Shown in pieces: positions 2,381-45,166 of a DNA stretch of 64,000 nt. The notes under the pieces are model-generated. The model was not told where the DNA came from and made no database searches. It saw only the letters and a list, made by a program, of their open reading frames with translations. The first letter of the stretch is position 1, and each line of letters starts with the position of its first letter. The position numbers and the translations under genes are program-made. Origin of the DNA: Glycera tridactyla (taxonomy: Eukaryota); NCBI GenBank assembly GCA_965644265.1, contig OZ286460.1:124496001-124560000 (forward strand), in the 5' to 3' direction.

Positions 2381-4027
2381 AAAATATTCCCCAAACTTTC
2401 AAGGTTTTTGCTCCGCTCAAAAACAATACTTATCGATGACTTTGCAGTTCATTCTTGTACAAAATAAGCAAGTCACTCAGAAAAGAGTGGTGTGTGTTGG
2501 TTCTATCAATTTTCTTGACAATCTTCTGACATCTAACACATGTTCGCCTTGTGCCCTCACACATAAAGCTGTCATCCTGTTACAAATACACGTGTTGCTA
2601 ATGTCCCTGAAGTTGTGAAAAAGGGGGGGTATGGTAATCGTTCTGCCATCACTTTCGTATGGTGCCCTTTCCCCATCAGTTTTATTATCTTATCTAATTC
2701 ACATATAATCAAATCCATCAAAGCACTCAAAGGCATCATGCTCTGCCTTTTAATGTCAAACTAATTTTGTCGATAAAACCATATCAGTGGTACAACAATT
2801 TTCATAGTACAATTTGCTACAAGGCACGTTATAGAGCCTTCTCTTTAAATTCATCATAAACAGAGACATTTGTGCTCAGTCGACTTGGCTGAGTCATAAA
2901 TCACTACATCACTCATTTTGTCAATTCTATCAGTTGCTACACTTCCAAATCCTTCATATGGACATCATGCTCTATCCGTATTACATACTTCACATTTTGC
3001 TAATTTAATTGCTAATTTTAGGAGACATCATGCATTGTACCGAAATGATGCATTTTTTTTCTTTGAAAAAATATTTTCACATAATGCATATGTATAGTGC
3101 TGGAGTTGTCACAGCTGGCACGCAGGCTGCTGGAGCAACTATGATGGGAGACCTTATACCTGGTCGACTAATAAGCTTGCACATAGTAAACTACACAGAT
3201 TTTCAACTTATGTACATTTCTGGTGTTGCCACACAGAATTCATCAAACTCTACTGAGGCATCATGCATTACCTCTTTCTCGAAAATATGATAGTGTTGGC
3301 TTGTTTCTGTCATGTTGGCATAGTATACAAAACGTCCAGTGTTTGTTTTGCTGCGTGTAGGTTGCATAATACTGCTGTTCCGGCACAGTATACAAATCGT
3401 CCTTGGGTTTCATCTCGTCAATTCTTGATGTATCAGGATAACGTTAGACTGCCATTTTGGCACAGTATACAAATCGTCAGTATATCCATTCTGTCGGTTC
3501 TTGAGAACTCAGGAGAACTTGTGACTGCCACATTGGCACAGTATACAAATCGTCAGTATATCCATACATTTGTTTTTGATGTATTTATCTGATGAATTTT
3601 CCTTCTGGTGATTTACTATCTCACAGGTGTGGGATTCTGTGTTCGTAGGGTGCGTGAACCCCTTTTTCAGGACAAGACTTTTGAATCATGCTTTGTGTTT
3701 AAAAATGAGCTGTCCAGATTATTCCTTAGATCTGATTTCTTTTACTGGTTCCAAAATATAAATCGAATGGGCTTGATGGTGTCAGACACTACTTAATCTT
3801 CAGTCATTACTGCTATCACATGTGTGAGATGGTTACCTTGTGTGACCCGCTGTCATCACCCTTCGCCGTGAATGCTTCCAAATTGGCCTAATGTGGTAAG
3901 TTGTCGGTGAATTTACCAGCTGAAATTATTTCCAAAAAAAACTTTGTGTTGGTTTCCTTATTTTTATAATTGGTCTTCTATGTCGAATCTTACTTTTAAC
4001 TTTGGTGGGAGTGGAGCTGGTCTTTTT

Positions 4028-4710
4028 CTAGAGCTTTTGGATGATGCTGTCTGAGAAAGTTTTTGCATAAGCTGGGATTTCTTTTCTGGGATCCATTCTC
4101 TTAAAATGGATCGGTGATGATGTTGATGGTTTTGGTGAGCCATCCCCCAAACTTTCATGATGATGCTTCCCAGCATCATGATATATTAATTGGTCTGGCG
4201 GTAGATTTGGCAAAGGATTGCTTGTGCATCGTTTCATCCGAGGCATATATTTGTAACGAAATAAACAAATGATCAACGTGATCATGATGATGATTGCCAA
4301 AGCCGCGCCCATCAACAAGGGCCAATCAGCCTGAAAGACACCTGGTTTCATTTCACCGAGGTGCTTCAAACCAAATGGGTTGATGTGTTGGCCCTGTTTG
4401 GCCTGCTCCACTGCATCTTCCAGATCCATTCCAAATTTATATAATTCATGAAAATCTAAATCTGCATGATCAGAGTTGACTGTGAATCGTGGTTCAGGAA
4501 TTTGTGATTCAGACTTCACGTAGGTGTTGGCAGTGTAATTGATTAATTCTGCTGGGTTCATTAGTCTGGAAAGTGCTGCAAGGTTTACTGGAAATTGGGC
4601 CTCTCGAGTCCATGTGGTTTGAGAGCAGTTATGCAGGACCAGTGAAATTGACAATGACCTGCCCTGCTCATCCATCACAGTGATACCACATGCACATGGT
4701 CGTTCCAGGA
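4028..4710 (-). pseudogene. env: C-terminal part of outer-element Env (Cys-rich stretch, PVNLAA motif, TM helix, cytoplasmic tail)
   Basis: PCACGIT...FPVNLAAL...WPLLMGAALAIIIMITLIICLF. Matches the inner Env (CGCAL...YPVNLAAI). The first ~30 aa of ORF 4028-4801 come from the transposon end, not from env. Confidence 0.8.
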
Positions 4711-4713
4711 TGC

Positions 4714-4835
4714 TAGTCCAGTGGCTTAGTGAAAAAATCGTTACGCGCCGGACTAAAGCACCAAATTTTGCACATGTGTTCTTTAGGTCCCCAAAACACA
4801 TCCTAGGTATAGGTGCCCAGGCTCAGGTGTCTAGA
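4714..4835 (+). repeat. Left terminal inverted repeat of the Academ-like element
   Basis: Imperfect reverse complement of about 45035-45166, sharing TAGTCC, CCGGACTAAAGCA, GGTGCCCAGGC and TCTAGATC blocks. Confidence 0.8.
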
Positions 4836-6003
4836 TCTCAAATTGGGTGATTTTTCAAAATGGCCGCCACCATCTGGAAAAAACACTCATTTTGGCCATA
4901 TAATCATTTTATTTCTGCAAAGAACATAATTGTAAGTCACAATTTGACAATGTATCTTCATGATAAACCATATTAGGTACCTTTCCATGAAGTAAAAAAA
5001 ATGAAATTTGTTGCGTTAAATTGAAAATACAGGCAATTTTCACCAAAATCGCCTGATTCACTGAGAATTTGTCGGATCTATACGATTGTCATTGACATAA
5101 TCCATAACATTTTCACAAGGTATGTCTCACGAGCTGATTTCTACCGTCTACTAAACTTCGAGTGAATGGCTATAGAAGATGTCCTGGCTACTAGACTCCA
5201 TCTAGATGACTATAGAAGAGATAGAATCTCCTCAGCTCGGACAGTAATAGGGGATTACTCGGGATCACTCGATTTTATCGGCTTGAGTAGACGACAACAC
5301 TCTTCCCTGATGAGAAGAGATGAAGGACGAATAGATGTAGAGTTTCCAATCTTTATTCCACACTTCACAACAAGTATGGACAATACAGTTGTTTCGGAAG
5401 TGGGGAGAGCGTGGACAGCAGGTACTTCTTGCACTAGCACATGACCACAGCAGTGCAATATCCCAAATCGATCTCCTGTGTCCACGTTCTCCCACAAGTA
5501 TTTATACGGGACTCATGGGAGTCCAATCAACCAATCATATGGCATCATGAGAACTGGTCGCCATGCTGATGTCATATTCACCATAGTATTTCTCTCTAAA
5601 TCATGCTTGTTGCTGATGAGTCACTTCGAATCCGCCTGGCTACCAACACACCTCGGATACAGATCATTATAGGCAATTTGCCAACTAAATATAGATCAAC
5701 CAATGGTCGGCCAACAAGCAGGTGATACACTCGTGATGTATGACTGATACCCACGAGTTCTTCACAAGATGGCTGACGAGTAAACAAGCCGTGAAACGTA
5801 GCTCTGGGAATATCGCCTATCCTCCCGCCCTATGGATTGGAAAGCTAATACTAATGGATAAATGGATTTAGGATACTACCCCCATTCTATATGGACATTA
5901 CTGTGACTTAACGAGTTTGATATAAAATTATCTCGGCAAACGACGGCGTTGACATTTCCCGGTAGCGAGGAACGTACTGAATATCGCTCAGTGACAGACG
6001 GTC

Positions 6004-8019
6004 ATGGCGGAGTCTATGAGTACGCCGGCATATAGCAAAGGTAGAAAATTTGACAAGCTGACGCCGGACCATGAAGCACCTGAAATGGATGACAAAAAGC
6101 CTAAGTTTAATCCCTCGCTGAGTATAATACACTACGACGGTGAGAACAATGATACAACTGGTGAAATCAATGAAGAAGGAGGGCTTTTTACCTCCACTCA
6201 GAAAAGTACGACAAAGGATTATACTGGTAGAGATTCAATGTCGGGAGACAGCCATTATAGTTCATTAGGAGTAAACAACGACGAAGATTTGACGGAGATT
6301 GACGAAGAGGAAACGAACACATCCGATGCCGAGAGCATGCTAGCCGAACAATCGAATAGTAACGATCGAGTACCGAACATAGCCGAGTCAAACACGAAAG
6401 TAAAGGCGAAAGAGTTCGGACCAACAACATGTGCTCTCGCGCCAGATGAAAACATTGTGATTGCGGAAGCCAGTCTCCACGCCTCAATAGGTGGAACACT
6501 ACAACCGCCCATAAATCTAAAAGAAGGAGTAACCAATGCACCAGATGTGACACCACCTTATAGAAAGGAAAACTTACTTGATCCGAACAAGTTAGCACAG
6601 TCAGCTGTCTTTAATAAACTGGTAGAAGACAAAGTTAGAATGGCACTGTCAAACATCATCATTCCAGCAGGAACTGAGCATTCGGAACTTGAGAAAATCA
6701 GTGCAAATCAAATGAAAAAACAAGCCAGAAACTACCTTGATGAACATGTGAAACCGCAAATTGATGAACTGGAGAGGAGATGCCGATTCGACATGGAGAA
6801 ATACGTTGAGTCTACAATGGAGGAAAGCACTGAGGCATGTAAAGAAGAATTGCTGGTGAAATTTGATGGAATTTTGAAAATAGTTGATGATCAACAAAAC
6901 CAAATCAATTCGGTCAAGAGAGGACTTAATGATCTATCTAGTAGCATTCAGAAAGAGCTTCATGCACTTAGACAGAAAAGAAATACAACAACGGGTCAGT
7001 ATACTGATATACAAATTCATGATGCATTAATGTCAGAAATTAGAGAGGCATTAGGTCAGATCACATTGTTAGTGGGGGAGCACCATGAGCGCATAGAGAG
7101 AACAGAAATCGATATTGACATACTGCAGAAAATTGAAAGACTCAGCGTGATTGTAGTTGATGGCCTTCCTGTAAGTAAGGACAAAACATTGCTTGAGCAA
7201 ATCATTGAATTTTTCAACAAAGAAACTGATGTGAAGTTGGTACCTAGTAACATTAGTCAAGTGATGAGGTTTGGCCCATCTAGATATGGAGTACCCCGAT
7301 CAATTAGAATTAGGTTGTGTGATCCAGATCTGAGGAGGAAAATCCTAAGCCAGAAAGGTAAAATAAGGGGATCAAAATATTTTATCCGGGAACACCTCAC
7401 CACGTGGGAAAGTGGCTTGCTACATGATGCCAAGGATGCTAGAAAGAAGGGAAAGTTAGCATTTGTCTGGACACAAGATGGGCGGGTATGCGTTTCCCAT
7501 GGTAGAGATTCAACCAAATTTATGATTAGTAATCAACAATCACTCATGAATGCTATTAGGAGGGGAGGGCATACCACTGATGACCTTGAAGCTGATGAAA
7601 ATCAGACCATAGATAACAAGGCTAATGGAGCAGTACAAGAAGAGGAAAATCAAAGAAGTCATGAAAAAGACACTTTGGCACCGGAAATTGGGGAAACTAC
7701 TCATTCATTAAATACTGAAGATCAAAGAGTAAATGATGATGAACAACAACCTACATCTGAACTTACAAAATCGAACACATTAGGAATTGAGCAAATATCA
7801 TTAACATTGAGAAATATACGAGCAAATATAAAAGCAAAAGAGCAATCGTTTCTTGACCAACGAGAAAGTCCAAGACAGAATCAGAGTAAATTAAACAAGA
7901 CTGACTGGCCAACACTGAAACAAACAACATTGACAGGCGAATCGGTTAGAACCGGTGTTTCTCAGATCGGGTTCACTACCGTGTATTCGAAACGCGGCCG
8001 GAGACCCCGGAAGTCGTAA
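6004..8019 (+). CDS. LINE ORF1 protein (acidic disordered N-terminus, coiled coil, RRM and CTD of L1/CR1-type ORF1p)
   Basis: 671 aa intact. Heptad-rich region, then VIVVDGLP...PRSIRIRL...YFIREHLT...WTQDGRV typical of L1-like ORF1 RRM/CTD. Same motifs in 31975-34680. Confidence 0.8.
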   Translation: MAESMSTPAYSKGRKFDKLTPDHEAPEMDDKKPKFNPSLSIIHYDGENNDTTGEINEEGGLFTSTQKSTTKDYTGRDSMSGDSHYSSLGVNNDEDLTEIDEEETNTSDAESMLAEQSNSNDRVPNIAESNTKVKAKEFGPTTCALAPDENIVIAEASLHASIGGTLQPPINLKEGVTNAPDVTPPYRKENLLDPNKLAQSAVFNKLVEDKVRMALSNIIIPAGTEHSELEKISANQMKKQARNYLDEHVKPQIDELERRCRFDMEKYVESTMEESTEACKEELLVKFDGILKIVDDQQNQINSVKRGLNDLSSSIQKELHALRQKRNTTTGQYTDIQIHDALMSEIREALGQITLLVGEHHERIERTEIDIDILQKIERLSVIVVDGLPVSKDKTLLEQIIEFFNKETDVKLVPSNISQVMRFGPSRYGVPRSIRIRLCDPDLRRKILSQKGKIRGSKYFIREHLTTWESGLLHDAKDARKKGKLAFVWTQDGRVCVSHGRDSTKFMISNQQSLMNAIRRGGHTTDDLEADENQTIDNKANGAVQEEENQRSHEKDTLAPEIGETTHSLNTEDQRVNDDEQQPTSELTKSNTLGIEQISLTLRNIRANIKAKEQSFLDQRESPRQNQSKLNKTDWPTLKQTTLTGESVRTGVSQIGFTTVYSKRGRRPRKS

Positions 8020-8703
8020 TGACGCGCATCAAGAGGGAAACCCCGTCAGACTCGTGTGGAATACGAAGAAATATCATCTGAAATCCGCAAATATGACGAC
8101 ACAAGCGCTCATTGTAAAAAGTCGTCGCAATAGCGACCAAAATCTAGGTTTCAAGAACGTGGTGAGTAAACGCCAACATTATTGAAATATACGAGAAGTT
8201 GTAAAATACGATTTATGCTGAAACCGCGTGTCAATTATGCAAGCAAATCCGAATTGAGAGGACAGGCCGAGTGGTCGTAATACCTTGTGTAATGACTTAT
8301 CTCTGGAATTTATCCAATGGACCTTGAAAAATAGGAATGATATAATGGATATCGATATATGGCGAATAGACTCCAATATCTGTAAGCAATTAACAAATTT
8401 GAAATTTAGGTTAGTTACAAAATGTTATTCGGCATGTCAATCTGACTTAGGATGACTAGAGAATTGTGCATCAAATAGGTTATTGAAATGCTTAAAATGT
8501 ATAATCTAATTGTTTTAATATCTCTCTCTACCATCAATAAAATATAAACCATTCAATAATTCTGTTCTGTAATTAGATATTGGACAGTAAAAATATAGAC
8601 CATTTAATAATTCTGTTCCAGTGTTTCCCAAAGATAGCTGATGAAATTGCAGAACAATTGTAATTAGAAATTAAACAATAAAAATGTAAAATATTTAATA
8701 ATT

Positions 8704-9609
8704 TTGTTTCAGAGTTTCCCAAAAACAGCTGATGAAATTGCAGAACAACGCGTTGCATCTATACTACAGAACAGTCCGGTTGATCGAAGAAAAGCCTTAA
8801 TTGATGAATATGATGCTCCAGAAGTCCTAGTGATGGGAAGCAGCCATGTGTGGAGGTTGGGCAGATTTGTCAAAAAACAACTCACTCACAACATCAGATT
8901 AAAGAAGGTTCTGTCAACTTGGCACTTCAAGGGCATCAGTGGTGGAAAATGGGAAACATTCATGAAGGAAATCCAGGGTATTTTCCCAGAAACCAAAAAT
9001 GGTATGAAAAAGAAGAGGGTCTATGGGAACACATTCTCACAGATTATCGAAGAACAAATTGCTCCCAATTACCTGGTACTTATTCTGGGGTCAAATGATG
9101 TGGACAGGATAGATGTCAAATTGAAGGGAATTATGTCAAGAACCAGAGATCCTAGAATTTGTAGGAGGGCCATCAACGATAAGCGTAGATCTGAATATTT
9201 GAAATTGTGTGGCATCATTGATGCAACTCTGATCTTCTTCAAGAGTAACTTTCCATCAACTACACTGTACCATATACCCATTACATGGCGTCCCTCATGG
9301 GACGATGAGGCAAGGGTTTTTGCACTATGGATTGACACATATATTCGCATGAATGCAGCAAAACACAATGAAAGATACACTGTGAAGTTCATACATACCC
9401 ACTTTTTGTTCGTTAAGCAACACAAAACACCACAGAAATCAAGGCTCCAAGGTCAAAAGAAGAAGTCCAAGAACAGACCATGTACACATGGAGATCTTCT
9501 GACAGGCATGATGGATACAGACCGCATTCATCTGAGCAAGCATGGGAATATGAGTTTATGTTTATCCCTCGTAGGACCTATCCTTGATGACTGGTTCCAA
9601 ACAACCTAG
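8704..9609 (+). CDS. SGNH/GDSL-family esterase of LINE A (main exon; probable upstream exon 8093-8161)
   Basis: Blocks VLVMGSSH, FKGISGG, LILGSND and DRIHL. The ORF-track start is a TTG lying inside a splice-acceptor-like tract (TTTTGTTTCAG). Confidence 0.8.
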   Translation: MFQSFPKTADEIAEQRVASILQNSPVDRRKALIDEYDAPEVLVMGSSHVWRLGRFVKKQLTHNIRLKKVLSTWHFKGISGGKWETFMKEIQGIFPETKNGMKKKRVYGNTFSQIIEEQIAPNYLVLILGSNDVDRIDVKLKGIMSRTRDPRICRRAINDKRRSEYLKLCGIIDATLIFFKSNFPSTTLYHIPITWRPSWDDEARVFALWIDTYIRMNAAKHNERYTVKFIHTHFLFVKQHKTPQKSRLQGQKKKSKNRPCTHGDLLTGMMDTDRIHLSKHGNMSLCLSLVGPILDDWFQTT

Positions 9610-11203
9610 GTTATAGATGGGATCAGAAATAATGTGGTGATGCTAAAAGTTCAACTCATGGTACTAATGACTGTTTCCTTCTTTGTATTTGAAAATACTT
9701 CCAGCAGCAGAATCGTTTCACCAAAAAAGTGTATTGATCAAAATTGACAAAGGTTTTGTCATAACACACTTCGTAGAACAGCAACTTATGGTTTTGCAGT
9801 AGCACATCATATTAAACAACAATCATTACCGTTGTGTATTCCTATGGAATCTCGATATGCTAGAGGAATGATGATGCCATGTAATATTAAAAGTAAAAAT
9901 AATAAAAGGCTAGATGAGGTGGGGACCATTGAGTGAAGATGGCAGCTCCTACAATTGCAGTGGTCCTACTATACTTCACTCACTGAGACCCATCCTCATA
10001 CAGCCCCAAGTATGAACCAGATTATGATTATAATCATTAAAGATGTTAATATAATCTTGAAGGTTGGAATAGTCGTGACAATCCATAAAATTAAAATTAA
10101 TCAATCAAAATCAAATTGATCTTGGATCAAACACTTGGTACAGCATATGCTCCTACGATTGCAGTGGTCCATAGCAATGCCATGTGTGGGAACCTAACAA
10201 TGCAATGAATAAGTGGAACTTGGGATGCTGTGCTCCTACAAATTGCAGTGGTCCACAGATTACCCTGGTGCCATGTAATGTAAAGCAAAAATTATAGAAA
10301 ATATTTTGGCATAAAATACAAATCTCTTGTATTTTGACTGTTCAATATTAGACCAGGGGGGTTGACCAAAGTGTTGATTATATTGCTGTGGTTTCTTTTG
10401 CCAAGAGTAATGATGAGAATGAGTGTCTTACCATGATTGTGATTTATTTTACTTAACAATGGAAAGTTGATTATGATGAAGATGTAATATGAATATGAAT
10501 ATGAAAGAAGAAGGATGTAGATCTTTTGTTGCCCAAGTTAAAGAGAAAGATTGTGTTTATATGGGCTGTCAATTAATTTTAATTATTTTCAACTGGCTCT
10601 GACTTTAGACCAACATATTACATTATTAAATTTCCTAAGTTTACTACCTTGACTATGTTTGTGAATCTGGATCACAAAATTAGACGGGAGCCTAGACACT
10701 GAAATTTGTCTGCTGGAACTAAAAAGCAGGGAATGATATCAGAGCATTTTTAGTTAATGGTTTCCATCTTGGTTTAAAGAGTGTCACCTGCTTCATATTA
10801 TTTGATTTATTGAATCAATTAATTCATGTGTCCCGGGTAGTTGCACCATTATTGATTAACCTACGTTTGAATTTAACCTATGGATAATTAAAAATGATTT
10901 AATGAAAAATCACTGGATTCACCAGACAAATTTATTAGTTGTATTAGTTCAACTCTTGCTCCCACAGAGAGGGTGTCTGTATTCGCAGAAAAGGGTGGGG
11001 GATGGGGGAGGGGTGTAACCCGAGCTTCAGTTCCTTTCAGATTCTTAATTTTTGACCTAATCAATCCTCTGATTATTAATATCATTGTTGGATGTGATTA
11101 TTTGTGAATTGGCCATTTTGTTTTGTTTCAAAATTGAGCTAAGCAACTTAGCGTAAATAATCTTCATACTTTTCATTTATCATATCATATACTGTATATT
11201 TGA

Positions 11204-14119
11204 ATGACTACAACTACGAATTCGACTCTTCCACCGAGATATGAGACAGTTCAGTTAAACAGTATTTCTGAAATATCTGGACTCAAAGGAGTCAAACTTG
11301 CATATTTAAACATTCGAAGTTTAATTAACAAATTAGATGACATACGAATAATTCTGCTCCAAACAAGGATGGATGTATTATTATTGGGCGAAACCTTTCT
11401 AACTGAACAAGTGACCAATACTCAATTGCAGATACCTGGCTATTATATACATAGATCAGACCGTACATCGAGAAGTGGAAAACGAACAGGAGGGGGGCTA
11501 CTAGCCTATATAAGGGAAGACCGAGCAACAGAAATGGTAACTGCTATGACTATATGCAATCAGGATGTTGAAGGCATGTGGTTGAAACTCCAGCTTCCCG
11601 ATACCAGACCAGTTTACTTATGTGGGGTCTATAGACCCCCTCATGGCAATCCTGGTGCATATTGTGAATGGATAGAAGAATGTATTATAGATATAGGAAT
11701 CCAGAGAGTAAGTGACCAAGCAATTCTTGGAGATGTAAATATTGACGTTGAGAATAGACAAGTGTCCAAAGCATACAAATCGTCATTAAAAACAAGTAAT
11801 CTGAAACAAATCATAACAAAATACACCAGGGTAGCCATGGGGTCTAAGACTCTAATTGATCATGTTGTGGTAAATAATGTTGAAATGTACCATCAAACAG
11901 GAGTGGTGGAGACAGGTCTATCTGACCATAGTATGATCATAGTTTGCAGAAAACGTCCACCCGTCTCACGCAAAACCGAATATGTGTATTTCAAAGATTA
12001 TAAAAAGGCTAATTTCATTGAAATCAAGAAATGCCTATTAGAACATGACTGGACTGAATTTTACAATACCACAGATACTGACACTTGTACCGACATCTTG
12101 CATCGAATCATAGATGAGATACTTGATCAGCATGTCCCTCTGAAACGATATCGAGTCAACGAAAATTGGCCCAAATGGTTGAACGGGGAATACATGGATC
12201 TCATCAGGGAACGAGAAAATGCAAGTAGAAATTTCAAACTATCAAATACCGAAGAAAACAAACTTCTGAAGAAAAATTTAGAAAAGCAATGCAAAAAACT
12301 AAAAAAGAAACTGCAGAGACAGTACATCGAGAATGCTTTTGTTGAACATTCATCAGATTCGAGAAAACTTTGGGAGACAATAAATAGCTTTTGGGGCAAA
12401 GAGAAAGGCAGCACAAACATAGTGAAAATTGGTGAAAGTACGGATAGTAAAGAAATAGCATCAAAGCTTAATGAATACTTCTGCACAGTGGGAGAGAAAT
12501 TGAGCAATCTGATTAGGGATGATGGCATTGATGCATTAGATAACTTCCCATGTAACTTAAGAAATACACTGACTCTTCATGAAACAAACAACACAACGGT
12601 CATGAATCTAATAGGCAAATTATCAACCTCAAAATCGGGTAAGGACGATGGACTTCCTACCAAAGTGATAAAGGAATGTTCAGAAGAACTGTGTCCATTA
12701 CTCTGCCATTTGTACAATGTGAGTATTAAAAACGGTCATTTTCCGATCAAATGGAGGACAGCAACTGTTATTCCACTCTTTAAGGAAGGTAATCGATCAC
12801 TAGAGTCCAATTATCGGCCAATCAGTTTGTTGTGTACCATAAGTAAAATACTAGAAAAAATAATACATGCTCAGATCGCCTCGTATTTAGAGACCCATGG
12901 CCTACTGTGTCGGGAGCAATCAGGATTCAGGGAGGGCTGCTCCACTGGTACTTGTCTATTAGAATTTCTTGATAAACTTTATCTAAATATAGAATCGAGA
13001 AAGACCAGTGGGGTGCTCTTCCTGGATCTCAAGAAGGCCTTCGACACGGTGGACCATGGGTTGCTTCTACAAAAGCTTGAAAGATATGGAGCGGATCCTA
13101 ATTGTATTTCATGGTTTAATAGCTATTTGTCAGATAGACGTAATCAAGTTAAAGTCAACGGGGTTACATCAGGGGAAGAATTCATACGTTGTGGGGTACC
13201 GCAAGGGTCCACACTGGGGCCTTTATTGTTCTCGATTTATGTGAATGATATATCGTATCATATGAAGGGTCCCAGTGTGAACTTATTTGCTGATGATACT
13301 GCTATATTGGTCGAAGACGCATCTCCCCAGATTCTTAAGAACAAATTAGAAAATTCCTTATCAGAGGTATCAATCTGGCTGAAAAGGAATAAATTAAGTC
13401 TCAATACCAAAAAGACAAAGATCATGATATTTGGAAGTAAACAAAGCATATCGAAATGTAACTTCAATATCTTGCTTGGATCAGATATTATAACACAAGA
13501 ACAAACTTTTAAATATCTGGGAGTTGTGTTGGACAGCCAATTAAAGTTCAACCATCACGCCGAACACATAAGGAAGAAAACGATTGTTAGGACAGGTGTG
13601 CTGGGACGACTCAGGGACGTGCTAAGCCAATGCACGTCCCTGATGTTGTATCGGTCCCTTGTCCTGCCACTGTTTGACTATTGTGATATTGTCTATGACA
13701 GTCTGGGACTGGCAGATGCAACAAAACTGCAAAGAGTACAAAACAAAGCGTTAAGAATAATTACAAAAAGTCCACCAAGAACAAGATCTATTGAAGTACA
13801 CAAGCAGGTTGAGCTGCCATTCCTTGACTGTCGTAGACAGTATCACACTCTATTGCATGTGAACAAAATAATGATGGGAGAGGTACATCATCAATACACA
13901 CCATTGTGCGCATTTCCATCAATATCACATCATTACAACATTCGCTCAAAAGAAAAATCCTTTCTTGATGTCTATGTACCACGGACTAAACAGGCAGAAG
14001 GCTCATTTCGGTTTAGAGGACCCAATGTATGGAATAATTACTTGAGAAGTCATGTAGATGCCACATTCTGTGAATCAGATAGCTTTAAAACACAACTGAG
14101 CCATTTTCTCAAAATATGA
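11204..14119 (+). CDS. APE endonuclease + reverse transcriptase (LINE ORF2), intact
   Basis: 971 aa. LNIRSL, GETFL, GDVNID, IDH and SDH APE motifs; NYRPISLL, QSGFR, FLDLKKAFDTVDH, VPQGSTLGPLLF, FADDT and KYLGV RT motifs. Confidence 0.95.
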   Translation: MTTTTNSTLPPRYETVQLNSISEISGLKGVKLAYLNIRSLINKLDDIRIILLQTRMDVLLLGETFLTEQVTNTQLQIPGYYIHRSDRTSRSGKRTGGGLLAYIREDRATEMVTAMTICNQDVEGMWLKLQLPDTRPVYLCGVYRPPHGNPGAYCEWIEECIIDIGIQRVSDQAILGDVNIDVENRQVSKAYKSSLKTSNLKQIITKYTRVAMGSKTLIDHVVVNNVEMYHQTGVVETGLSDHSMIIVCRKRPPVSRKTEYVYFKDYKKANFIEIKKCLLEHDWTEFYNTTDTDTCTDILHRIIDEILDQHVPLKRYRVNENWPKWLNGEYMDLIRERENASRNFKLSNTEENKLLKKNLEKQCKKLKKKLQRQYIENAFVEHSSDSRKLWETINSFWGKEKGSTNIVKIGESTDSKEIASKLNEYFCTVGEKLSNLIRDDGIDALDNFPCNLRNTLTLHETNNTTVMNLIGKLSTSKSGKDDGLPTKVIKECSEELCPLLCHLYNVSIKNGHFPIKWRTATVIPLFKEGNRSLESNYRPISLLCTISKILEKIIHAQIASYLETHGLLCREQSGFREGCSTGTCLLEFLDKLYLNIESRKTSGVLFLDLKKAFDTVDHGLLLQKLERYGADPNCISWFNSYLSDRRNQVKVNGVTSGEEFIRCGVPQGSTLGPLLFSIYVNDISYHMKGPSVNLFADDTAILVEDASPQILKNKLENSLSEVSIWLKRNKLSLNTKKTKIMIFGSKQSISKCNFNILLGSDIITQEQTFKYLGVVLDSQLKFNHHAEHIRKKTIVRTGVLGRLRDVLSQCTSLMLYRSLVLPLFDYCDIVYDSLGLADATKLQRVQNKALRIITKSPPRTRSIEVHKQVELPFLDCRRQYHTLLHVNKIMMGEVHHQYTPLCAFPSISHHYNIRSKEKSFLDVYVPRTKQAEGSFRFRGPNVWNNYLRSHVDATFCESDSFKTQLSHFLKI

Positions 14120-14306
14120 GTTTGTATCAAACAGAAAACATAACACTATGTCGTTGGGGCAAATCTGAATGGTTTATTGAAATCATATGTCGAATATACA
14201 ATATCATCAAACAATCACCAATAACAATTCATTTCATCTCATTACTAACACTCATTGAACATATGTAAACCATTGTATTTGTGTTGATTATCGTCGGACC
14301 GGGAAA

Positions 14307-14381
14307 GCCCCAACATGCTGGGGCAACTGTTTGAATACATCTGTATGACGATTTAAAATAAAGAATTATACTATACTATAT
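14307..14381 (+). terminator. LINE A 3' end: GCCCCA-ACATGC-TGGGGC stem-loop, AATAAA, (TATAC)n tail
   Basis: 6-bp perfect hairpin 14307-14324, AATAAA 14357-14362, then short tandem tail. 3' stem-loops plus microsatellite tails are typical of CR1/L2 LINEs. Confidence 0.65.
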
Positions 14382-17300
14382 TACGATGCGAATGTGCAGT
14401 GCAACTCCCCCTCCCACTGGTTTATAATGATTGGAGGATCCCACTGGGACTCCTTTTAGTAGAGTCATATCCCCGTATATTCGGGTCCAGCAGGCACAGT
14501 GCCAATAATGACATGTGCCAGCCTTGTCCGGTCTCTATAGTCAATCTCGCTGCAAGTTAATGTGTAGATTCATGTCTATAGTTGGTTTGTGTTTGGGAAT
14601 ATAAAAATATCCGTGAGATATTACATCTCTTCTCTGGATGCTTAAGCCCTCGAAGCATCGGATCCCTTCTTTGAATATTGTTTACTTTATTTGAGTCCCT
14701 GGGAATCAGAAAGGCCACCGTCCAGGATCATATAGGAAAATGGGCCAAGTGCCAACTAGCCAAGTGTAAGTATCAACATCCCTCAGGGACGTTAGTCAGT
14801 GGCCTGTTCAGCAATCAACCCCCTCTCCATCAACCCTAGATTGTGGTAGGACCTCTAGTTTTGGTCCTAAGTCTATAGAATCAAAATATAGGGATCTTGC
14901 CCTAATCAATTCCCTTAAGGTATTTTATTTCCTCACAAAATGACTAAGTGCCAACCTCTTTGGATCAGAACCTGTCTTCCCACAATTTGGGTATCCCCTA
15001 AACGTGACATCAGTGCCTTAAATATGATGTCATTATCCCCTGCAATGCGGTCAGTACCCAATGCAAGTGGGTCCTATATTTTCCCCCAATGTTCAGGCAC
15101 GTGACGGGGTGCCTATCCACTATCACCCATAGTGATCAAAGACGTCACTAGGCCCCACTGCTAGTGTATCTGACCAATCCTATGTTTTTCATGCCGCTAG
15201 CTCCCAATTCTGTCTATGATGCTCCCAGGATAACGTCACCAAGGCCAACATCATCCCTGTAGACCAATCAGAAGATATTCGCATGATTCTGAATTCTGGA
15301 GTCATTACAGTCTAATGCCAGGTTTCTAGCATCAACTAGTGAAATAGAGAGAGACTATAAAGTGACCGCCTCTTCTCGCCAATCGTCACGTACGAACATG
15401 ATTTTCGCGCATATTACTGAGAGAGATTTTCTTGCTAATTCCCGCAGCAATCGGTGGTCACGAATTTGGTTTCGGGCTGGGCACCATTATTAGGAGCGAA
15501 ATCGTAGCGCCCGTACTCGGAGACCGAGCAATGCATCATCTCTTTAGCCGCACCAAGTGGGCTTTGTCCGGGAACGACTGCAGCTCACGGTCTCCGTTGG
15601 TCAAAAAGTCAAGTTCGTCGGGGCTTCTTTGTGTATGTTTAATATTCGAAGCGAAGCCTCGTTCTGGATTCTTGCGTATCATACTGCAACCTTTCGACAT
15701 ATGACGTCATTTCTCGACCTTCACACTTGACCTCACGAACATTATCGTATCACGTCCGGCAAATTCCTGATTTTTCCGGAAATGGCGCCAAATTGTCGAA
15801 ACTTATTCTAAATCAGCGAATGCATGTGAATTATGGCTTATAGTGAAGAAAACCGGTCACACCCGCGCTTCGAGTGACTCTATCCGCATGATATTTCACA
15901 AACATGACTAGAAAGAACCATAAATGAGATATTACATCTCGGAACCCACCGTAGTGGCTATTTAGTCTAAAATGCGATGACTTTGAATGCATTGGAGCCA
16001 GCCCTCCGCACGAAAACTGTAGCCATAGATCCCAGGAGATCTCTCGGGTCGGCAAACCGAGAGGTCTGAGATCCGGTTCACACTACCTTCTGGCCAAGAT
16101 TTCATACAAGAGCACAGGCTCTCGTGCTGCCAAAATGAAAACCCGTTTTCCATCGAATTTCGGACAGATAGGGGTAAACCCCCGAAAACAAACTAAGAGA
16201 GGGATACAGACGCATGGTAGCGTTCTCAGGAGGGACTCTAGAGAACGACAGAATTTTAGAATAAGAAAAAGACATAAGATGAGAACACGGTATCATGCTC
16301 AAAATAATACTATACAAACCCAACCAGAACAGAACCGACTCCCGGTAAAACCAACCACCTGACGGTCATAATCAGGTCACGTGTCTCACACACGTACCCT
16401 GTTATCACGTCAGGCCCATCAGATCTCCCAAGAGGTCATGGGGACCTGCTCTCGTGCGGTAATACTCAATCAGTTACAAATGTCACAATTATACCCTGCT
16501 TCAACACTGGTACTGATCCAAGTGACCTGCGGTTGAACCCACATGACAGTCAACCCACTATTGACTAGAATGTCCACTCTCTCTCATGCGAGTCCATCAC
16601 TTGGAACAACCATAGGGAGACGAATACAAGTATAGTTCAACACAGTATAAACGCTAAATTCCTGAGCGTATGTCCATGGTATATATGGATATATAAACGA
16701 GCAGCCATTTTTATACAACATCCTTGCTGGTTGTCCCGAGATCATTATCCTCCTACTCTCGTGCTCCAGCTAAACTATTGAGGGCTCAACCAGAAGATGG
16801 CTCTCGTAGAATCGTGATCATATGGTGGAAGGGTCGGCGATTGGTCGTTGCACAGCGATTAGTTATCCTCTTCCCTGAATGTTCCAAATGCGAGAGCCAG
16901 AGGCATACCTCTCGTGCGATCCAAGGCGCATGTCTCTGAAACTCAAGCAAGTGAAACATATCAGGTTAATAACCGTACAACACGTAAAAATCCCCATCAA
17001 CCCACCCGACATGCAGTCCAACATAGATCACTCAGAAACATACTGTCCAGTATAACTACTAACATCGAGCATCACAGCCTATTTGACAGTAGGATATATT
17101 CATCCTAGGAGCATGTATGAACGGCAAAATGGAGCAGATTATAATGGCAGAATACATAGATCAAATACGCTTACCTATAAATAGATATATATAAGAATAA
17201 ATATGATTAAATAAGATTACATATGGTTTGAGCATAGTAAAAGTACGTGAACACTATATTTTTTGAAGTTTTTCTCTTTTTGTCAATTTCTGTTTTGTTT

Positions 17301-17908
17301 TGCGTATATATATAATTTTTTCGTAGATTCTCTGTTTTATAAAAGTTTTTGTTTTTGTTTTGATTGTAGAAGGGGGGGGGGGGTATCAAACTCTCTTGCA
17401 CACTCACATAGTACTTTACAAAAACAACCGAGGCGGGCCACGCAGGTCGACATGCCCCCTCTCATACTAGGATGCAGCAGTCAGTTACTGCAAGTCAGTC
17501 CCATGGACAGCATCGTATAACCCTCTCTCGGTTGCTAGACAATACCTGTCTGAACCAGCCCACTCGACACTCATACCATACAACAACAACAAGAAACTTT
17601 CGAGAGGGTGGTTCATTCAGGGGTGAGAGGTTGAAACCCCCAAGAGAGACACTAGGTCATTTGGTCCCCCTTGGAGGTTCCAAGTTGAAATGTATCTATA
17701 ACTGGCTCGACTGGACAGTTGGTCATGAAATGTAGTCGTTATCCCTACTCTCGTGCGCCCCAGATAACTAGTCTATCATGTGGAGAGATCCCTGCGTGTA
17801 GTGCGATGTGACTGTGGATGTTGCATTGTGTTTGGAGAATTCCTATCTCTTACCATGCGAGCCTGGGCTCTTGGCTCCGCATGAGAGGCACTACCTAGCC
17901 TGTAACAT

Positions 17909-20900: not shown

Positions 20901-21148
20901 AATTGGGTCTACTTACCGGGTCGAGAGGTGTTTCTGTCGACCCGAGAGTAACCATCCTCCATACGACATAGGTGGTTATCCAAACCACCCTCATACCCAT
21001 ACTGTCGTCGTCTGAAACAGACGACAATTGGACGAAAATCAACCCTTTTTGATCCAAACCCCATCATATTGTAAACTCTAGGAATCAATATCATCATCAT
21101 GCGACCGCATGAGATCTTACAATATGATGTTGAGCCCCCTTGTCTCAT
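17909..21148 (-). pseudogene. env: Env of inner Gypsy element (putative class I, F-like fusion protein), in several ORF pieces
   Basis: NYGIMF motif (outer: NYGVHF), basic sites RPRFRR, RRKRK and RLRR, then hydrophobic WNPFAWLGKHVFGLAT, heptad region, Cys-rich domain, PVNLAA and TM segments. Confidence 0.75.
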
Positions 21149-22985
21149 AGAATCAGACTTGGAGTGACATGTGTGTTCTGTTTGTGTTTCAGCATTGCTC
21201 CCTCATCACCCTCTCAGCTACGATTCCTCTTGTGCACGTTCCTCACCTCAAAAGAAAAATATTCTAACCTCTCTTGCTACTTCTTTTTCGTAGCTCATAA
21301 CCTCTCTTGCAACCTCTTTCTTGACTCACTATCTCTTCTCTTTACTCGCCATTTTCTCCCCCCAAAACATGGCTTCTATTCACCCTTCAATTATTGAGTG
21401 GTCTGTGGCGATGTTAACCCGCGCCTGGGCCGACTGGGGAGTAGATCGAGTGGACATGGTTGTTGGTTAAGACGTTATCCTCTTCCTGATGAGGCCCCTG
21501 CCGGGGCAGTTGGGACTGTCCCTGGCCTCACACATGGTGGGGAATATGGTTCCATACCACCATACTGCCCATGTGGCAGCATGGGGGGGGGGGGTGCTTT
21601 GGAGGTGTCGTCCGCCTGGACGACCCTGCCATACCCCTGGTACCATGGGGACCATCCCTTTCTCGGGTCCTAACGGACATGCCGTCCCTGGGACACATTG
21701 CTATTGCCCCTTCAGGTGGTCCTTCAACTTTTGGCTCCTCAGGGTATGCCCCTGCCACCCTGGCGGGACTGCCCTTGGACTACATGTCCCCCGGTCCCTT
21801 CCGTCTTCCCTCCCATGGGTTGGTCATGGACCAACCCATGGTCCCTGCTGGGTCCGGTCAGACCCCGCCTGTAGAGTAGCTGAGCCTATGCCCCAGCGGT
21901 CCAGTCTCCCGGAACCCAGGGGCCCTGGACGGCTCATGCCCAGTCCCACCCTGCCCCAGGTGGGTCTGAATCGTTGGTTGGAAGCCCTCACACATGCTCA
22001 ACCCCAGGTCCAACCTCCCCCAGCCCATCGTCTCATTCCCCCATCACGACCCATACCAACACCCGTTGTACCCCTACCCAACAGGGTCCCCCCACACAAA
22101 AGAACCTCCTCCTGAGGGGTCTCCTGAGAGGAGAGGACCCGCCTGTGGCCCCCACTCAGGACAACACATTGTCCTCAACTCTGGGTCCATGGGACCCTCC
22201 CATGTACGAGGACGAGTCCTCTTCCTTAAATGAGGGGGAGCCAGGGCGGGGTATCCGTCGCTAAGTTACATTTCTAACCTTCTCCTTGTTCGCATGCTGC
22301 CTTCCCTTGTAGATGAATGTATATGCTCATATCATCCTGTGGCCATGTATAAACATTCTATACCCTATTCATCCTCTTTATCATCATGCGATTATCCCAG
22401 GATCAATATCTTACTATAGTGATTCTCTTTAATTATTGGTGATTATGATAAGGAGTGTCTATGATCACCACGGCTCACCTCTAGGTGGCCCAGGCAAAGG
22501 AGACGTCGTAGATACATCGCAACCCTCCCCCATATCCACAAGGTAAGTGAATACTTATTCATCTTTTTGGCAATGATCAGTTGCCAAGGCCCAAGATGAC
22601 AGGACCTTCATTAGGGTGATACTCTATCTGCATGCTATCTTTCATTCTAAAACCAGCTATTCAGAGAGTCCCTCTTGGCACCGAGACCCCGGGTCTAATT
22701 TCTATCTCTTTCCGACCCTAAATAAATGACTGCAACTCTCTCTGGCCTGACGACTGAGCATGTTGAGTCTGACCTCTCCTATTTACTGAGCATGGCGCTG
22801 GTACCTGACTCAATCGTACCCCAATTGATTTCTCGTTAGGCTGAATTCTCACTAATTCAATATTCTGGCCTTCCTAACGATAATAAGCGCTATCAGGCTT
22901 TATTCTGGCTGGATTATGGAGCGGTAGTCTTGGACGCTGATACCTCGTCTAATCTCTTATGCGAGTATCAGTCACTATACGCTGA

Positions 22986-24442: not shown

Positions 24443-24640
24443 GTTTCTGAGAATTTCGGCATCGGACTTAAATTGCTCAAGTTGTTCCTCAAGCAGCTTA
24501 GGACCTAAGAACGCATGATATGTCAGCTATCTCACTTATCGTTCTAGCAGCTGGGCCATGACTTTGTTTCAGAGTATGCACAAACATCACTATAGTATCA
24601 TCTAAGGGCGTACCTAATTCCTTCTTGGAATAATTCAGTT

Positions 24641-26931: not shown

Positions 26932-27099
26932 GTATACAAAGTTACCATGCTAATTGAGTGTATGCAAAAATTCCTGGTCTCTGACTGATAAAACCTTTGG
27001 CACCCAAAGATGTTGAGAGAGTCCCCCTCACTTTCATGCTGATATTTTGTTGTACCAACACTGGTATGTGGCATGGTTATTGCCACAGGTCCCACAGGT

Positions 27100-31974: not shown

Positions 31975-34680
31975 GTGAGTAAGCGGAGCGGAGAAAATTC
32001 TACCAGCATGTCCGAAACAACCCTCATATCGACGGCAGTACAGCACGCCGATGTTCATCATATTCCCGAGAAGTCAAAGGACGAAGAAATCGACTCGCTA
32101 GACAAGGGTATAGTTGCCAAAAGTAAGTTTTATTCAACGGTGAGCGATAATATGCAAGACGTCCGTACGCTGCCCTTGGCAGACGCCCCACCAGGCACTG
32201 AAGCCGTCACACTGCGCGTCTTTGACTCGGCTACCAATGTTCCCGCGTTCCCTGACGCTGCTACACAACGTGGTGACTCTGCTACCAATGTTCCCGCGTT
32301 CCTTGACGCTGCTACACAACGTGGTACTTTTCACTTCAAAGAATCCTCAGTCATTCTGTCAGATATCATGAAAACCCCTGATGTTCAATCAAATCATGCC
32401 TCTCCACTTAGAGCTAAAAGGCGTATAAAACAAGTACGAGACGTGCGTTCAAAGTCATGCGAGAGACCAGCAAATGACACCAAGGCGAAAATGAATTTGA
32501 CACCTGGTCTGATATCAATGCGTGATAAATCACAATCCAATCTCACGTTGGACAACATGTCACGATATAGCCTTTCCGATACTGAGTCCATAGCTTTGGA
32601 ATCAGACTCCGAGTCTACCGACAATAACAAGATCTCCTCACCTTGTGGAAAAGAAAGTGTCAGCAACACCCAAAGTAAAAAGAGAAGATTTAAGTCACCT
32701 CTTATTGAAACCACCATTACTACGAACATTGAAATGTCTGATCCTGATCTTGACTCTCATGCTACCAAACCTATCACAGATGAAGCGGTCCTTGATGACG
32801 ACGATGATTACTTCGAATGTGGTCAAAGGGTTCGAGATACTCAAGATTCAACAAGTTCTGACGATAATAGTTCTCCTGTTAAACCGTTTCTGCTGGACAC
32901 ATATCTAAACCATGCTGCTATTTCTCAATCTGCCCCATTTAATGATTTAGAAATCTTGCTCCCCACACATGACCAATCTCAAATTGAACCAGTTTCTACC
33001 CAGAAGGAATCGGCACGAAAAGATGTTATAGCCGAAACTTCTACAGGACCTGTCGAAAAAGACCCATCACGAAAAGAACTCGCAACATCTCAAGATAACG
33101 AACCCAATTCTCTACAAGGTGATCTTGAATCCTTTGAAACCAGACTATGGAAATCAGTTATTGACAAGCTTCCCAAAATGATTGAGCTTGTGACGGCAGA
33201 TAAATTTGACGAAGTTTCATCAGACTTGAACGAATTATCCAGAAATCATAACTACAACATAGCCGAGCTTGAATCCAGCATGCTCGCGGAACTTACTGCA
33301 CTGAAAGATGAAATGAAATTCCTAATTTCCGAAAATGGGAAACTCACTCGATCACTGAAAAAGCATGAGGATACTCACACTGACATCATCAAATCAGTGA
33401 ATGACTTCAAACGTGAAACTAGTCTCTCCATTGAAAAAATCAGAAAAGAACTTCAAGAAGTCAATTTGATCAATACTCACAAAATCCTACCCGGAAACAG
33501 ATCCAATGAATCAGAGCAAAATATTATAAAACCTATAGAAGACCAACTAAATCAACTCACAAAAAATCTTGGTCTTACTGACTTCCGTCTCGGTAAGCTT
33601 GGACAACGAATTGAAGCAGTTGAAATTGATGAGCGCCAAAATGTTGTCATCATAGAAGGTATCTCTATTCGTCCAGATGAAAACCTTCACGACAAAGTCA
33701 TTCTCACTCTAAATGAGCTACTGGAAACTGAACTCGACCACAAAGACATAATAGCATGCCAGTTCTTCAGTAAACCGTCCAATGACTCTTGCCCGAGATC
33801 TATTCGAGTTAAATTCAGATCTCAGAACCTAAAGAGATGGGTTATGCGGCAAAAAGGCAAGCTCCGAAATACGAAAACGAAGATTTTCATAAATGAGCAT
33901 CTGACCACGAACAACAATAGTATTTACTATTTGGCAAGACAAGCATGTAGGAATAAACTTCTACATCATACTTGGACAGATATGGGTCGGGTATGGGCCA
34001 CTAAATCAAGAGATTCAGTCCCCACTTGGATAAAGGATCCAGAACGCTTGAAAGAAGAGCTTGAGGCTATCGCCCATGGCAAGTATGATGACATCCCATC
34101 TAACAAAGATGGAATCTCCCCAAATCTTCATTTTCAACAACCTTCTTTCTCTCAGGAAGTCAACTCGGTTCTAAACGATCCCAAAGAGACAGAGAAAACA
34201 CGTATGGGTCTAACTGATTCTGAATCAGCGGTAAAGGCACGCATCGTAAATCGAACTGTACCACGTCACGGCCAAGTTCAGCGCGAAAATAGCAAACATA
34301 CTCCCGCACACTTGGATCGGTTTTCATCGCGCGATCAAGGACAACAACGGGATCTTCCTACAACTTCGAGGTTTAGCAATTCTGCTGGAATAGGAAACCG
34401 TCTTCTGAATATTGCACTTGGAGATCAACCTGAGCAACTACTGGATAATCCCGGTCGTAAATCTTGGAACCAGCGAGACGCAAGCTCTTATTCCGTTCAG
34501 AACAGCAAACAGCGTCACAAACAGCTGCCCTCACGCTCCAACACATTTGGAAACTATAGTTCATTCACGCCAAATAACTATAGTTCATTCGCACCAAGAT
34601 CTATAAACAAACAACGTGAGTACTTCTCTGACTACCCCCTACCTCAATATGGCAGAAGGGGACTACATTCCCATATATAA
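31975..34680 (+). CDS. LINE B ORF1 protein (first ATG at 32008)
   Basis: Long Ser/acidic N-terminus, coiled coil, then NVVIIEGI...PRSIRVKF...IFINEHLT...WTDMGRV, homologous to 6004-8019. Confidence 0.8.
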   Translation: MSKRSGENSTSMSETTLISTAVQHADVHHIPEKSKDEEIDSLDKGIVAKSKFYSTVSDNMQDVRTLPLADAPPGTEAVTLRVFDSATNVPAFPDAATQRGDSATNVPAFLDAATQRGTFHFKESSVILSDIMKTPDVQSNHASPLRAKRRIKQVRDVRSKSCERPANDTKAKMNLTPGLISMRDKSQSNLTLDNMSRYSLSDTESIALESDSESTDNNKISSPCGKESVSNTQSKKRRFKSPLIETTITTNIEMSDPDLDSHATKPITDEAVLDDDDDYFECGQRVRDTQDSTSSDDNSSPVKPFLLDTYLNHAAISQSAPFNDLEILLPTHDQSQIEPVSTQKESARKDVIAETSTGPVEKDPSRKELATSQDNEPNSLQGDLESFETRLWKSVIDKLPKMIELVTADKFDEVSSDLNELSRNHNYNIAELESSMLAELTALKDEMKFLISENGKLTRSLKKHEDTHTDIIKSVNDFKRETSLSIEKIRKELQEVNLINTHKILPGNRSNESEQNIIKPIEDQLNQLTKNLGLTDFRLGKLGQRIEAVEIDERQNVVIIEGISIRPDENLHDKVILTLNELLETELDHKDIIACQFFSKPSNDSCPRSIRVKFRSQNLKRWVMRQKGKLRNTKTKIFINEHLTTNNNSIYYLARQACRNKLLHHTWTDMGRVWATKSRDSVPTWIKDPERLKEELEAIAHGKYDDIPSNKDGISPNLHFQQPSFSQEVNSVLNDPKETEKTRMGLTDSESAVKARIVNRTVPRHGQVQRENSKHTPAHLDRFSSRDQGQQRDLPTTSRFSNSAGIGNRLLNIALGDQPEQLLDNPGRKSWNQRDASSYSVQNSKQRHKQLPSRSNTFGNYSSFTPNNYSSFAPRSINKQREYFSDYPLPQYGRRGLHSHI

Positions 34681-35605
34681 CCTTTATTCTTACCCAATCG
34701 TACGGCGAGAAATTTTAATAACTGACTCAGACAATAAACAAGCTGACTTTCAACTCACTCCGTCAAATGAATTTTCCCTGAGATTGGCCGCAGAGAGAAC
34801 AATGTGGGAATTCAGTACCCCAAATGTTTTGTTTATCGGTGATTCCAATGTATGTCACCTCAGAACTGACGTTTACAAGGATAGTTTTCCTCCTCATCTA
34901 AGTCACATGTTATCTAATGCATATTTCATGGGGTTCAGAGGCATGACCTTGGTGCGCGCTTACAACTACATGAAAGGAGAATATGAATCTTGGAACAAGT
35001 GGAATGATTATGGCATGCCTTGGGAGATCTATGATGTCAAAAGACATGATCCTAAATATGTTGTACTAGTACTCGGAGGAAATGACGTGGACAATTTCAA
35101 CCGTCATATCAATGCCTTGGAAGACCAATATACAGGCCAACAATTTATTAATGCAGCAGAACATGCTCTTGAAACTTGGAGTAATGATCTTAGACCAATG
35201 ATCAGACATTTTATCTTTGATGTATACTGCAGATCCAATGGTATACCTATCTATTTTATAACTATTGCTCCAAGAGAGTGGTGGGGAGACTACGCCCGCA
35301 GATCAGCCTCGCATATAGATTTTTTTATCAACCGCTTCCTCAGGAAAGAAATATCGATCAAAAGTCTTTGCTGCCATACCCTGTTTCACAACTATAATCA
35401 AATTTCGTTCAATCCTTCTAAAAATGACATTGTCAAGGGTTTTCTCCAAATTGATGGTGTACATCTGAACCAAAAAGGAAATATTGCCTTCTCTCGAGAC
35501 ATCATATACAGATTGCTGGAAGCTCACAGACGTGAACTCCGTGAAAAACGGAATAAATCATTAAAAGCACAGAAACGAGCGGCATACTACTCCTATTATT
35601 ACTAA
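34616..35605 (+). CDS. SGNH/GDSL-family esterase of LINE B (first ATG at 34649)
   Basis: VLFIGDSN, FMGFRG, LVLGGND and DGVHL: all four SGNH blocks with Ser/Asp/His present. Confidence 0.85.
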   Translation: MSTSLTTPYLNMAEGDYIPIYNLYSYPIVRREILITDSDNKQADFQLTPSNEFSLRLAAERTMWEFSTPNVLFIGDSNVCHLRTDVYKDSFPPHLSHMLSNAYFMGFRGMTLVRAYNYMKGEYESWNKWNDYGMPWEIYDVKRHDPKYVVLVLGGNDVDNFNRHINALEDQYTGQQFINAAEHALETWSNDLRPMIRHFIFDVYCRSNGIPIYFITIAPREWWGDYARRSASHIDFFINRFLRKEISIKSLCCHTLFHNYNQISFNPSKNDIVKGFLQIDGVHLNQKGNIAFSRDIIYRLLEAHRRELREKRNKSLKAQKRAAYYSYYY

Positions 35606-45034: not shown

Positions 45035-45166
45035 TCTAGAAGGCCAGGCCTGGGCACCCTCCTCCAGAATTATTACCTAGTGCCTATACTAGAAGTATTC
45101 AAAGTTTGTTGCTTTAGTCCGGTCTGTAACGATTTGGTCAAAATTTGACGCTAAGCCACCGGACTA
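45035..45166 (-). repeat. Right terminal inverted repeat of the Academ-like element
   Basis: Ends CCACCGGACTA, followed by the TSD TGC. Confidence 0.8.

Follow-up and report, generated by a model that had tools for sequence, protein, structure and literature searches.

A predicted spliceosomal intron is conserved within the esterase gene of an APE-type LINE clade

Element A is a three-ORF LINE with a stand-alone esterase gene

The window, the whole 64,000-nucleotide stretch of DNA that was analysed, sits inside a 2.04 Gb host genome in which nested retroelements are abundant, and all coordinates are positions within it. It holds two LINEs: element A, which is full-length and encodes ORF1, a stand-alone SGNH esterase and an APE endonuclease-reverse transcriptase (APE-RT), and element B, which carries a homologous esterase. 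The features are as follows.

5765..14383, + strand: element A, full-length three-ORF LINE
5765..5782, + strand: 5' end with the AAGATGGC start, the common start of full-length copies, complementary to the RT leader
6004..8019, + strand: ORF1, 674 aa stop to stop, with a weak C-terminal match to the Baculo_FP_2nd domain
7171..7176, + strand: GTAAGT, proposed second donor, rejected
7893..8281, + strand: CpG-rich stretch from the ORF1 end to intron nt 120, predicted internal promoter
8093..8161, + strand: esterase exon 1, 23 codons from the ATG
8162..8712, + strand: predicted phase-0 GT-AG intron, 551 nt
8568..8748, + strand: 91-nt tandem duplication spanning the acceptor, its upstream copy forming a decoy acceptor at 8621
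8713..9609, + strand: esterase exon 2, SGNH hydrolase with a complete catalytic set
9610..11203, + strand: non-coding spacer, 1.6 kb
11111..11152, + strand: RT leader, with the GCCATTTTG motif and the palindrome GCTAAG-N3-CTTAGC (27/57 and 29/57 copies, respectively)
11204..14119, + strand: APE-RT ORF, 971 aa, intact (Pfam PF03372, PF00078)
14357..14381, + strand: AATAAAGAA and (TATAC)n microsatellite tail, the repeat number differing among copies
34649..35605, + strand: element B esterase, homologous, coding sequence without an intron, overlapping the ORF1 stop by 32 nt

Element A is classed as an APE-type LINE on the basis of APE and RT in one ORF, a variable simple-repeat 3' tail, 5' truncation and dispersed copies. 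Other copies start at 5764-5768 (n=5) and stop at 14369-14383 (n=7), and the flanks of the full-length copies, where shown, are unrelated to each other. The shared AAGATGGC start is presumably YY1-like. The three-ORF plan is general, as the N-terminal motif of the RT ORF was found downstream of the esterase in 56/60 fetched A-type loci and a near-full RT in 18/20 distant loci. The APE domain and the lack of a match to GIY-YIG in Pfam set element A apart from Penelope-like elements. It does not have the type IV ORF1 of CR1/L2 elements either, since its esterase is a separate ORF, with the ORF1 stop 73 nt upstream of the esterase ATG. From its architecture and from known features of such elements, it probably belongs to the CR1 group (CR1, L2, Daphne, Crack, Kiri). 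A consistent short target-site duplication was not detected in 36 copies; long flank repeats are present at L067, L071, L089, L100 and L109, and some of these are tandem arrays. At L067, a full-length copy, at least 194 nt are duplicated on both flanks, possibly a very long target-site duplication.

The esterase gene is split by a predicted phase-0 intron

Esterase exon 1 opens with the ATG at 8093 and runs for 23 codons to GTG/GTGAGT, with the donor at 8162. The acceptor, TTTCAG/AGT, lies at 8712, and both junctions are in phase 0. Re-reading of the sequence agreed with the initial annotation on these positions, on the 551-nt length and on the phase. The AT content of the intron is 70%, compared to 59% in the flanking ORFs. 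Exon 2 carries all four SGNH blocks (G42-S43-S44, G74/G77, GSND with N128, and D270-x-x-H273), which are invariant or nearly so in 37 sequences. Its structure model adopts the alpha/beta SGNH hydrolase fold (pLDDT 88), with PAF-AH and GDSL esterases as the best PDB matches. Once spliced, the catalytic nucleophile would be residue 67, compared to residue 66 in the intronless element B esterase (both counted from the translations), in line with the earlier estimate of about 65 residues before the catalytic motif. Without splicing, the first Met would be M41, within strand 38-42 of the model. This bears out the earlier suggestion that an unspliced start would cost the protein the strand before the nucleophile.

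The decoy acceptor at 8621 is out of frame, and the duplication that creates it is present in the window, L061 and L064 (3/9 close copies). Counts of YTRAY 15-40 nt before the acceptor gave no single peak for the branch point. Splice-site matrix ranks are circular, as the sites of the window had trained the matrix, and were not counted as support. The initial annotation also proposed that the phase-0 GTAAGT at 7171 could serve as a second donor, fusing the ORF1 coiled coil to the esterase. This motif is present and in phase 0, and it was rejected because GTAAGT occurs in 7/46 copies, all close kin, and GT is absent from 10/46. It is a by-product of Val-Ser codons rather than a conserved donor. 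No conserved acceptor was evident upstream of exon 1, judged by eye.

Splice signals are conserved across the A-type loci

In the first DNA search, relatives matched query positions 1-221 and 748-1051, with no match in the middle. All fetched loci were then deduplicated by their 990-nt context, leaving 175 exon-2 loci that contain a catalytic anchor and extend 700 nt upstream, 121 of them with an A-type exon 1. These loci are the best matches to the queries rather than a random sample: in one search 150 of 2078 candidates were scored, and a minority of the candidates is covered. GT directly follows codon 23 in 120/121 loci and YAG precedes exon 2 in 116/121 (at the exact boundary in 115/121); both signals are present in 115, and an ATG opens exon 1 in 118/121. 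At ten neighbouring codon boundaries of the same 121 loci, the counts are 0-21 for GT and 0-1 for YAG. The splice signals stand at the exact codon boundaries far above chance. The donor and the YAG acceptor with its pyrimidine tract, conserved at fixed coding positions, are as in U2-type spliceosomal introns. The six exceptions resemble single damaged copies, and the 121 loci form 42 clusters at 80% identity and 20 at 60%. Intron length ranges from 228 to 672 nt and falls into all three frame classes (49/40/32 loci), which indicates that the stretch is not read through. The remaining 54 are of three kinds: copies without a profile match for exon 1, some of which are truncated or carry an interruption or a frameshift; loci of distant lineages, whose exon 1 is of a different type; and loci of intronless lineages.

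The initial annotation had called this stretch a spliceosomal intron, naming splice-site conservation among genomic copies and a search for intronless copies as checks. Conservation holds across the 121 loci and argues for such an intron, and the search returned no intronless copy among them (0/121; upper 95% bound 2.4% if the copies are independent). Three further searches, with 56, 94 and 88 overlapping exon-1 matches, gave none in an open frame of more than 189 aa; an intact intronless esterase gene would need ~320 aa.

Exon 1 of element A differs from seven relatives (L062-L067 and L073) by 51 synonymous and 10 replacement codon changes, which are not independent, and from L063 by 11 synonymous and 0 replacement changes. 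This pattern indicates that exon 1 is protein-coding and under purifying selection. In the intron, matches to six of those seven relatives fall to 65-72%, with large length changes. In an unspliced reading of 53 copies, the frame of exon 1 closes after 25-83 codons, and in 47/61 copies exon 2 offers its first Met only within strand 1 or beyond it. Together, these comparisons support a requirement of the esterase for splicing, and from the conservation of the signals splicing very likely occurs in the cell. The split esterase gene is clade-wide and old.

The intron position extends to distant lineages

The esterase of element B scores above the Pfam PF00657 cut-off and aligns at 99.9% probability. 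It is followed by a 3-kb pyrimidine-skewed spacer (35606-38735) and then a frameshifted APE-RT ORF. With a distant public homologue as query, 30 loci of distant lineages were recovered. Of the 29 with a catalytic anchor, 20 have an AG at the same site, defined as within one codon and counted from the catalytic Ser, and 9 are contiguous. In seven intron-bearing B-like loci, exon 1 has 19 codons, including a PIY motif, and ends in GTRAGT 373-1064 nt upstream. This PIY-type exon 1 (L185, L187, L189, L195, L198) matches the contiguous N-terminus of the intronless L202, element B, P0021 and P0084, a similarity that is the strongest sign that the stretch interrupts one protein. The profile of the A-type exon 1 had no match to the element B N-terminus, from which it has diverged too far.

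In the unrooted RT tree, the intron occurs on both sides of the deepest split, with RTs 32-33% identical to that of element A. Intronless lineages exist, so the intron was lost or gained at least once. Two intron changes are needed on the tree, and on this unrooted topology a single gain or loss was not rejected (p-AU 0.33); several independent losses, which we had considered, were therefore not adopted.

Word-based protein searches found no relatives of the esterase. A HMMER profile run against 1.84 billion proteins returned 125 matches, 72 of which align over the catalytic strand and 37 of which extend to the intron position. Gln stands exactly at that position in 14 of the 37, mostly after Phe or Leu (background 3.5%; binomial p about 1e-11), as expected if a gene caller had read through a TTYCAG acceptor. 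For two of these acceptor-type proteins the best match in the host genome is only 30-33%, so another species is their likely source. P0007 and P0029, kin of the acceptor-type P0014 and P0017, are contiguous without the acceptor signature and may be either spliced-RNA contigs or an intron-loss lineage. These matches suggest, indirectly and from proteins alone, that homologues in other species also carry the intron. As a lead only, atlas look-alikes of the esterase are mostly eukaryotic, molluscs and chordates being the commonest recorded phyla.

A young, high-copy B-type subfamily (L130, L132-L148) has an acceptor-like TTTTCATTTTCAG 38 nt upstream of the esterase ATG. A GTGAGT lies 187 nt upstream of it, inside ORF1, and the pair is a possible second intron position.

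Genomic copies show an unspliced template

Most genomic copies are one-off insertions and therefore sample the RNA that was reverse-transcribed. L072, L089 and L120 start at points within the intron and lack an ORF1 over the preceding 10 kb, and L089 has identical 25 nt on either side. Such copies, 5'-truncated inside the intron, show that the RT template was unspliced. Over 8.5 kb, L090 and L109 share 99.4% identity; their flanks differ, and both have kept the intron. The initial annotation had proposed unspliced RNA as the retrotransposition template; the three truncated copies and the 0/121 intronless loci are in agreement.

A predicted internal promoter overlaps the intron

From the ORF1 end to intron nt 120, the CpG observed/expected ratio is 1.2-1.5, compared to 0.43-0.46 in flanking coding DNA (121 loci), making this the most CpG-rich part of the element. 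The ratio is 1.53 in the 70 nt upstream of the ATG and 1.42 in intron nt 1-120, both largely non-coding. CACGTG is present in 23/121 loci upstream and in 24/121 in the intron, against 0 and 3 in the controls, and GCCATNT in 41 against 2 and 1; these counts are taken over related copies. GCGCAT and CCGGAA are also enriched. The transcription-factor names that we give to the motifs (ETS-, NRF1-type, YY1-like) are presumed labels. At the element 5' end, ACACG is the only one of the upstream motifs that is common (11/35), and the ETS-, NRF1-type and TCGAAC motifs are at 0/35. Judged by composition and motifs, 7893-8281 is likely to be an internal promoter that overlaps the intron. Intronless lineages are likewise CpG-rich at the ORF1-esterase boundary. 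The gap between the ORF1 stop and the esterase ATG is mostly 40-88 nt in the A clade, which is promoter-like; in other lineages the stop lies 2-8 nt before the ATG or overlaps it, which fits reinitiation rather than a promoter.

Sense poly(A) signals after the esterase stop are not enriched (24 against 20.9 +/- 4.1 expected), and early polyadenylation after the esterase is therefore not supported. A short mRNA would thus still end in the 3' tail, and what bars it from being copied would be the cis argument given below. A cluster of 5' breakpoints near the ATG was also considered as a mark of an internal start and set aside, 4/20 checked loci being insertions.

Across 21 families, the first 18 nt of each family pair better with the family's own RT leader than with those of other families. 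Own-family pairing is 2.8 kcal/mol better than the mean, and 0/5000 permutations, which ignore phylogeny, were as low. A control region gave p 0.44, and no family-specific pairing was found upstream of exon 1 (p 0.15). This complementarity may reflect long-range RNA pairing or inverted YY1-type sites. The pairing site for 5765-5782 lies at 11080-11170, 40-130 nt upstream of the RT ATG. The palindrome of the RT leader (11138-11152; CTAAG-N-CTTAG) is ~55 nt upstream of the RT ATG in 29/57 copies.

Why the intron may be kept

A LINE copies its own processed RNA and should therefore lose any sense-strand intron; the same expectation lies behind processed pseudogenes and L1 SpIREs. A clade in which a coding intron has stayed at one position for so long must shield its RT from spliced RNA. 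Splicing would not remove ORF1, as the intron is wholly within the esterase gene, so the esterase needs either a promoter of its own or reinitiation for its start. We lean slightly towards an explanation with two RNAs and two promoters. RNA 1 would be full-length and unspliced, would start at the element 5' end and would be the one that is reverse-transcribed. RNA 2 would be a short, spliced esterase mRNA from the internal promoter at the ORF1 end. This promoter might, as a weakly founded step, set the cap near the donor and so allow efficient splicing. On the 5'-initiated RNA the donor would be 2.4 kb from the cap and past the ORF1 stop, and, given how cap-proximal exon definition and nonsense-mediated decay work, would be poorly used or its product broken down. 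A short mRNA that has neither ORF1 nor the 5' end that pairs with the RT leader would supply neither protein in cis and so would not be copied, with the pairing hypothetically acting as a gate on RT translation. The broader proposition stands at about even chances: an ancient LINE lineage in several animal genomes, with retrovirus-like RNA sorting, RT translation gated by 5'-end pairing and an intron position older than ~33% RT divergence. The initial annotation had likened the arrangement to retroviral env. The combination of an unspliced genome RNA and a spliced message stands; the rest of the analogy does not, since the intron lies inside the esterase gene and ORF1 is left in place, whereas env/ORF3 splicing in LTR elements removes the upstream ORFs.

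The closest alternative, which is also nearest to the model of the initial annotation, has a single 5' promoter. The full-length RNA would be partly spliced, the esterase would be made by reinitiation, and the intron would hold a packaging or localisation signal, as psi is a packaging signal in retroviruses, so that spliced RNA would not be copied. The stop-start spacing of several lineages (2-8 nt or overlapping) speaks for this arrangement, as do the 5'-end pairing, which suggests that downstream ORFs are translated from 5'-initiated RNA, and the spacer without a poly(A) signal excess. We nevertheless consider it rather doubtful. A signal of this kind sits poorly with an intron that cannot be aligned among families and whose length, 228-672 nt in the A clade, reaches 1064 nt in other lineages. 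The promoter-like gap of the A clade and the lack of family-specific pairing upstream of exon 1 also speak against it. A spliced full-length RNA would moreover retain the RT ORF and the tail, so copying in cis would be expected, as for the spliced L1 RNA described in the available text of PMC5860796.

It is unlikely that spliced RNA is copied and its intronless progeny are dead ends, selection alone keeping the intron because it holds promoter elements or because splicing is needed for translation. The CpG and motif richness of intron nt 1-120 and the existence of intronless lineages would fit, as would the near loss of Penelope reporter expression on intron deletion (PMC2377424, in the text available). 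Dead copies should, however, persist in the genome as L1 SpIREs do, and 0/121 were found (bound 2.4% if independent). Very improbable is an account without splicing, in which the conserved GT and AG survive as a relic, or the copies multiplied as DNA, with the esterase made from exon 2 alone. An early Met in exon 2 in 14/61 copies and the lack of clear short target-site duplications in 36 copies would suit it. Against it, splice signals and exon-1 codons are conserved and the intron sequence is not; and the 3' microsatellite tails of variable length, the sharply defined 5' ends, the 5'-truncated copies and the intact APE-RT are marks of retrotransposition.

Relation to known elements

The comparisons that follow draw on the available portions of the cited papers. 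In Penelope-like elements (PLEs; Penelope of D. virilis and Chlamys-3_cRei), a sense-strand spliceosomal intron survives retrotransposition and overlaps an internal promoter, as is predicted here (PMC8557442, PMC2377424). Splicing has been proposed as necessary for Penelope translation, and why PLEs keep their introns is described as an open question (PMC8557442). Unlike the APE-RT LINE element A, PLEs encode a telomerase-related RT, and their endonuclease, where there is one, is of the GIY-YIG type. Of their introns, the two that have been characterised are in the 5' UTR, whereas that of element A interrupts the coding part of an accessory ORF in the middle of the element; one further PLE intron is inferred to split an N-terminal extension (PMC8557442). 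Intron retention is thus already established for PLEs, and what element A adds is a predicted coding intron kept by an APE-type LINE. No such case was found in the literature searched, with Repbase entries, subscription papers and supplements outside its scope, and the available parts of PMC5718144, PMC9977147 and PMC2881922 hold nothing on coding introns kept by APE-type LINEs.

CR1/L2/RTEX LINEs (ZfL2-1) share with element A an SGNH esterase with intact catalytic residues (PMC3905857, PMC4120745, PMC13343379). Theirs is a domain of ORF1, whereas that of element A has an ORF to itself, placed between a different ORF1 and the RT. In the portions available, splicing goes unmentioned in PMC3905857 and PMC13343379 and introns in PMC3905857 and PMC4120745, and PMC13343379 uses 'intron' solely for a group II outgroup. 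Human L1, like element A, is a LINE whose RNA has functional splice sites; in L1, splicing harms the element and the spliced RNAs are copied as dead-end SpIREs (PMC5860796), whereas in element A splicing appears to be needed for a protein and no spliced copy was found. The env/ORF3 of retroviral and LTR elements, including a GDSL-esterase ORF3 of rotifers, combines an unspliced genome with a spliced accessory message, as proposed here (PMC5408684). Those are LTR elements, and splicing of the element A intron would not remove ORF1. TART and, as cited in the same paper, Tad are non-LTR elements with introns in their transcripts (PMC1636488). The TART introns are on an antisense, apparently non-coding RNA (PMC1636488) and so run no risk at reverse transcription.

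With its many natural copies, the clade is suited to studying how a LINE picks its template and why a retroelement retains an intron. Current annotation of such elements truncates the esterase, which appears to be important enough to keep its own expression route.

Minor features of the window

Among the copies compared, the element A spacer yielded neither a conserved ORF or peptide nor a second intron position. An Rfam search gave no credible match, and a PDB sequence search gave no significant one. A conserved island at 9908-10303, which contains a 22-nt motif three times and had no match in Rfam, is kept in the ten closest copies. In the distal spacer (~10300-11100), the 800 nt upstream of the RT leader, TTTATT (antisense AATAAA) is in about twofold excess (95 against 50 +/- 8 expected in 34 family representatives). 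Around and between the two LINEs lie Gypsy-like LTR elements on the minus strand (~4000-4800, 17900-28800 and 45100-56750), whose gag, pol and env-like ORFs are fragmented.
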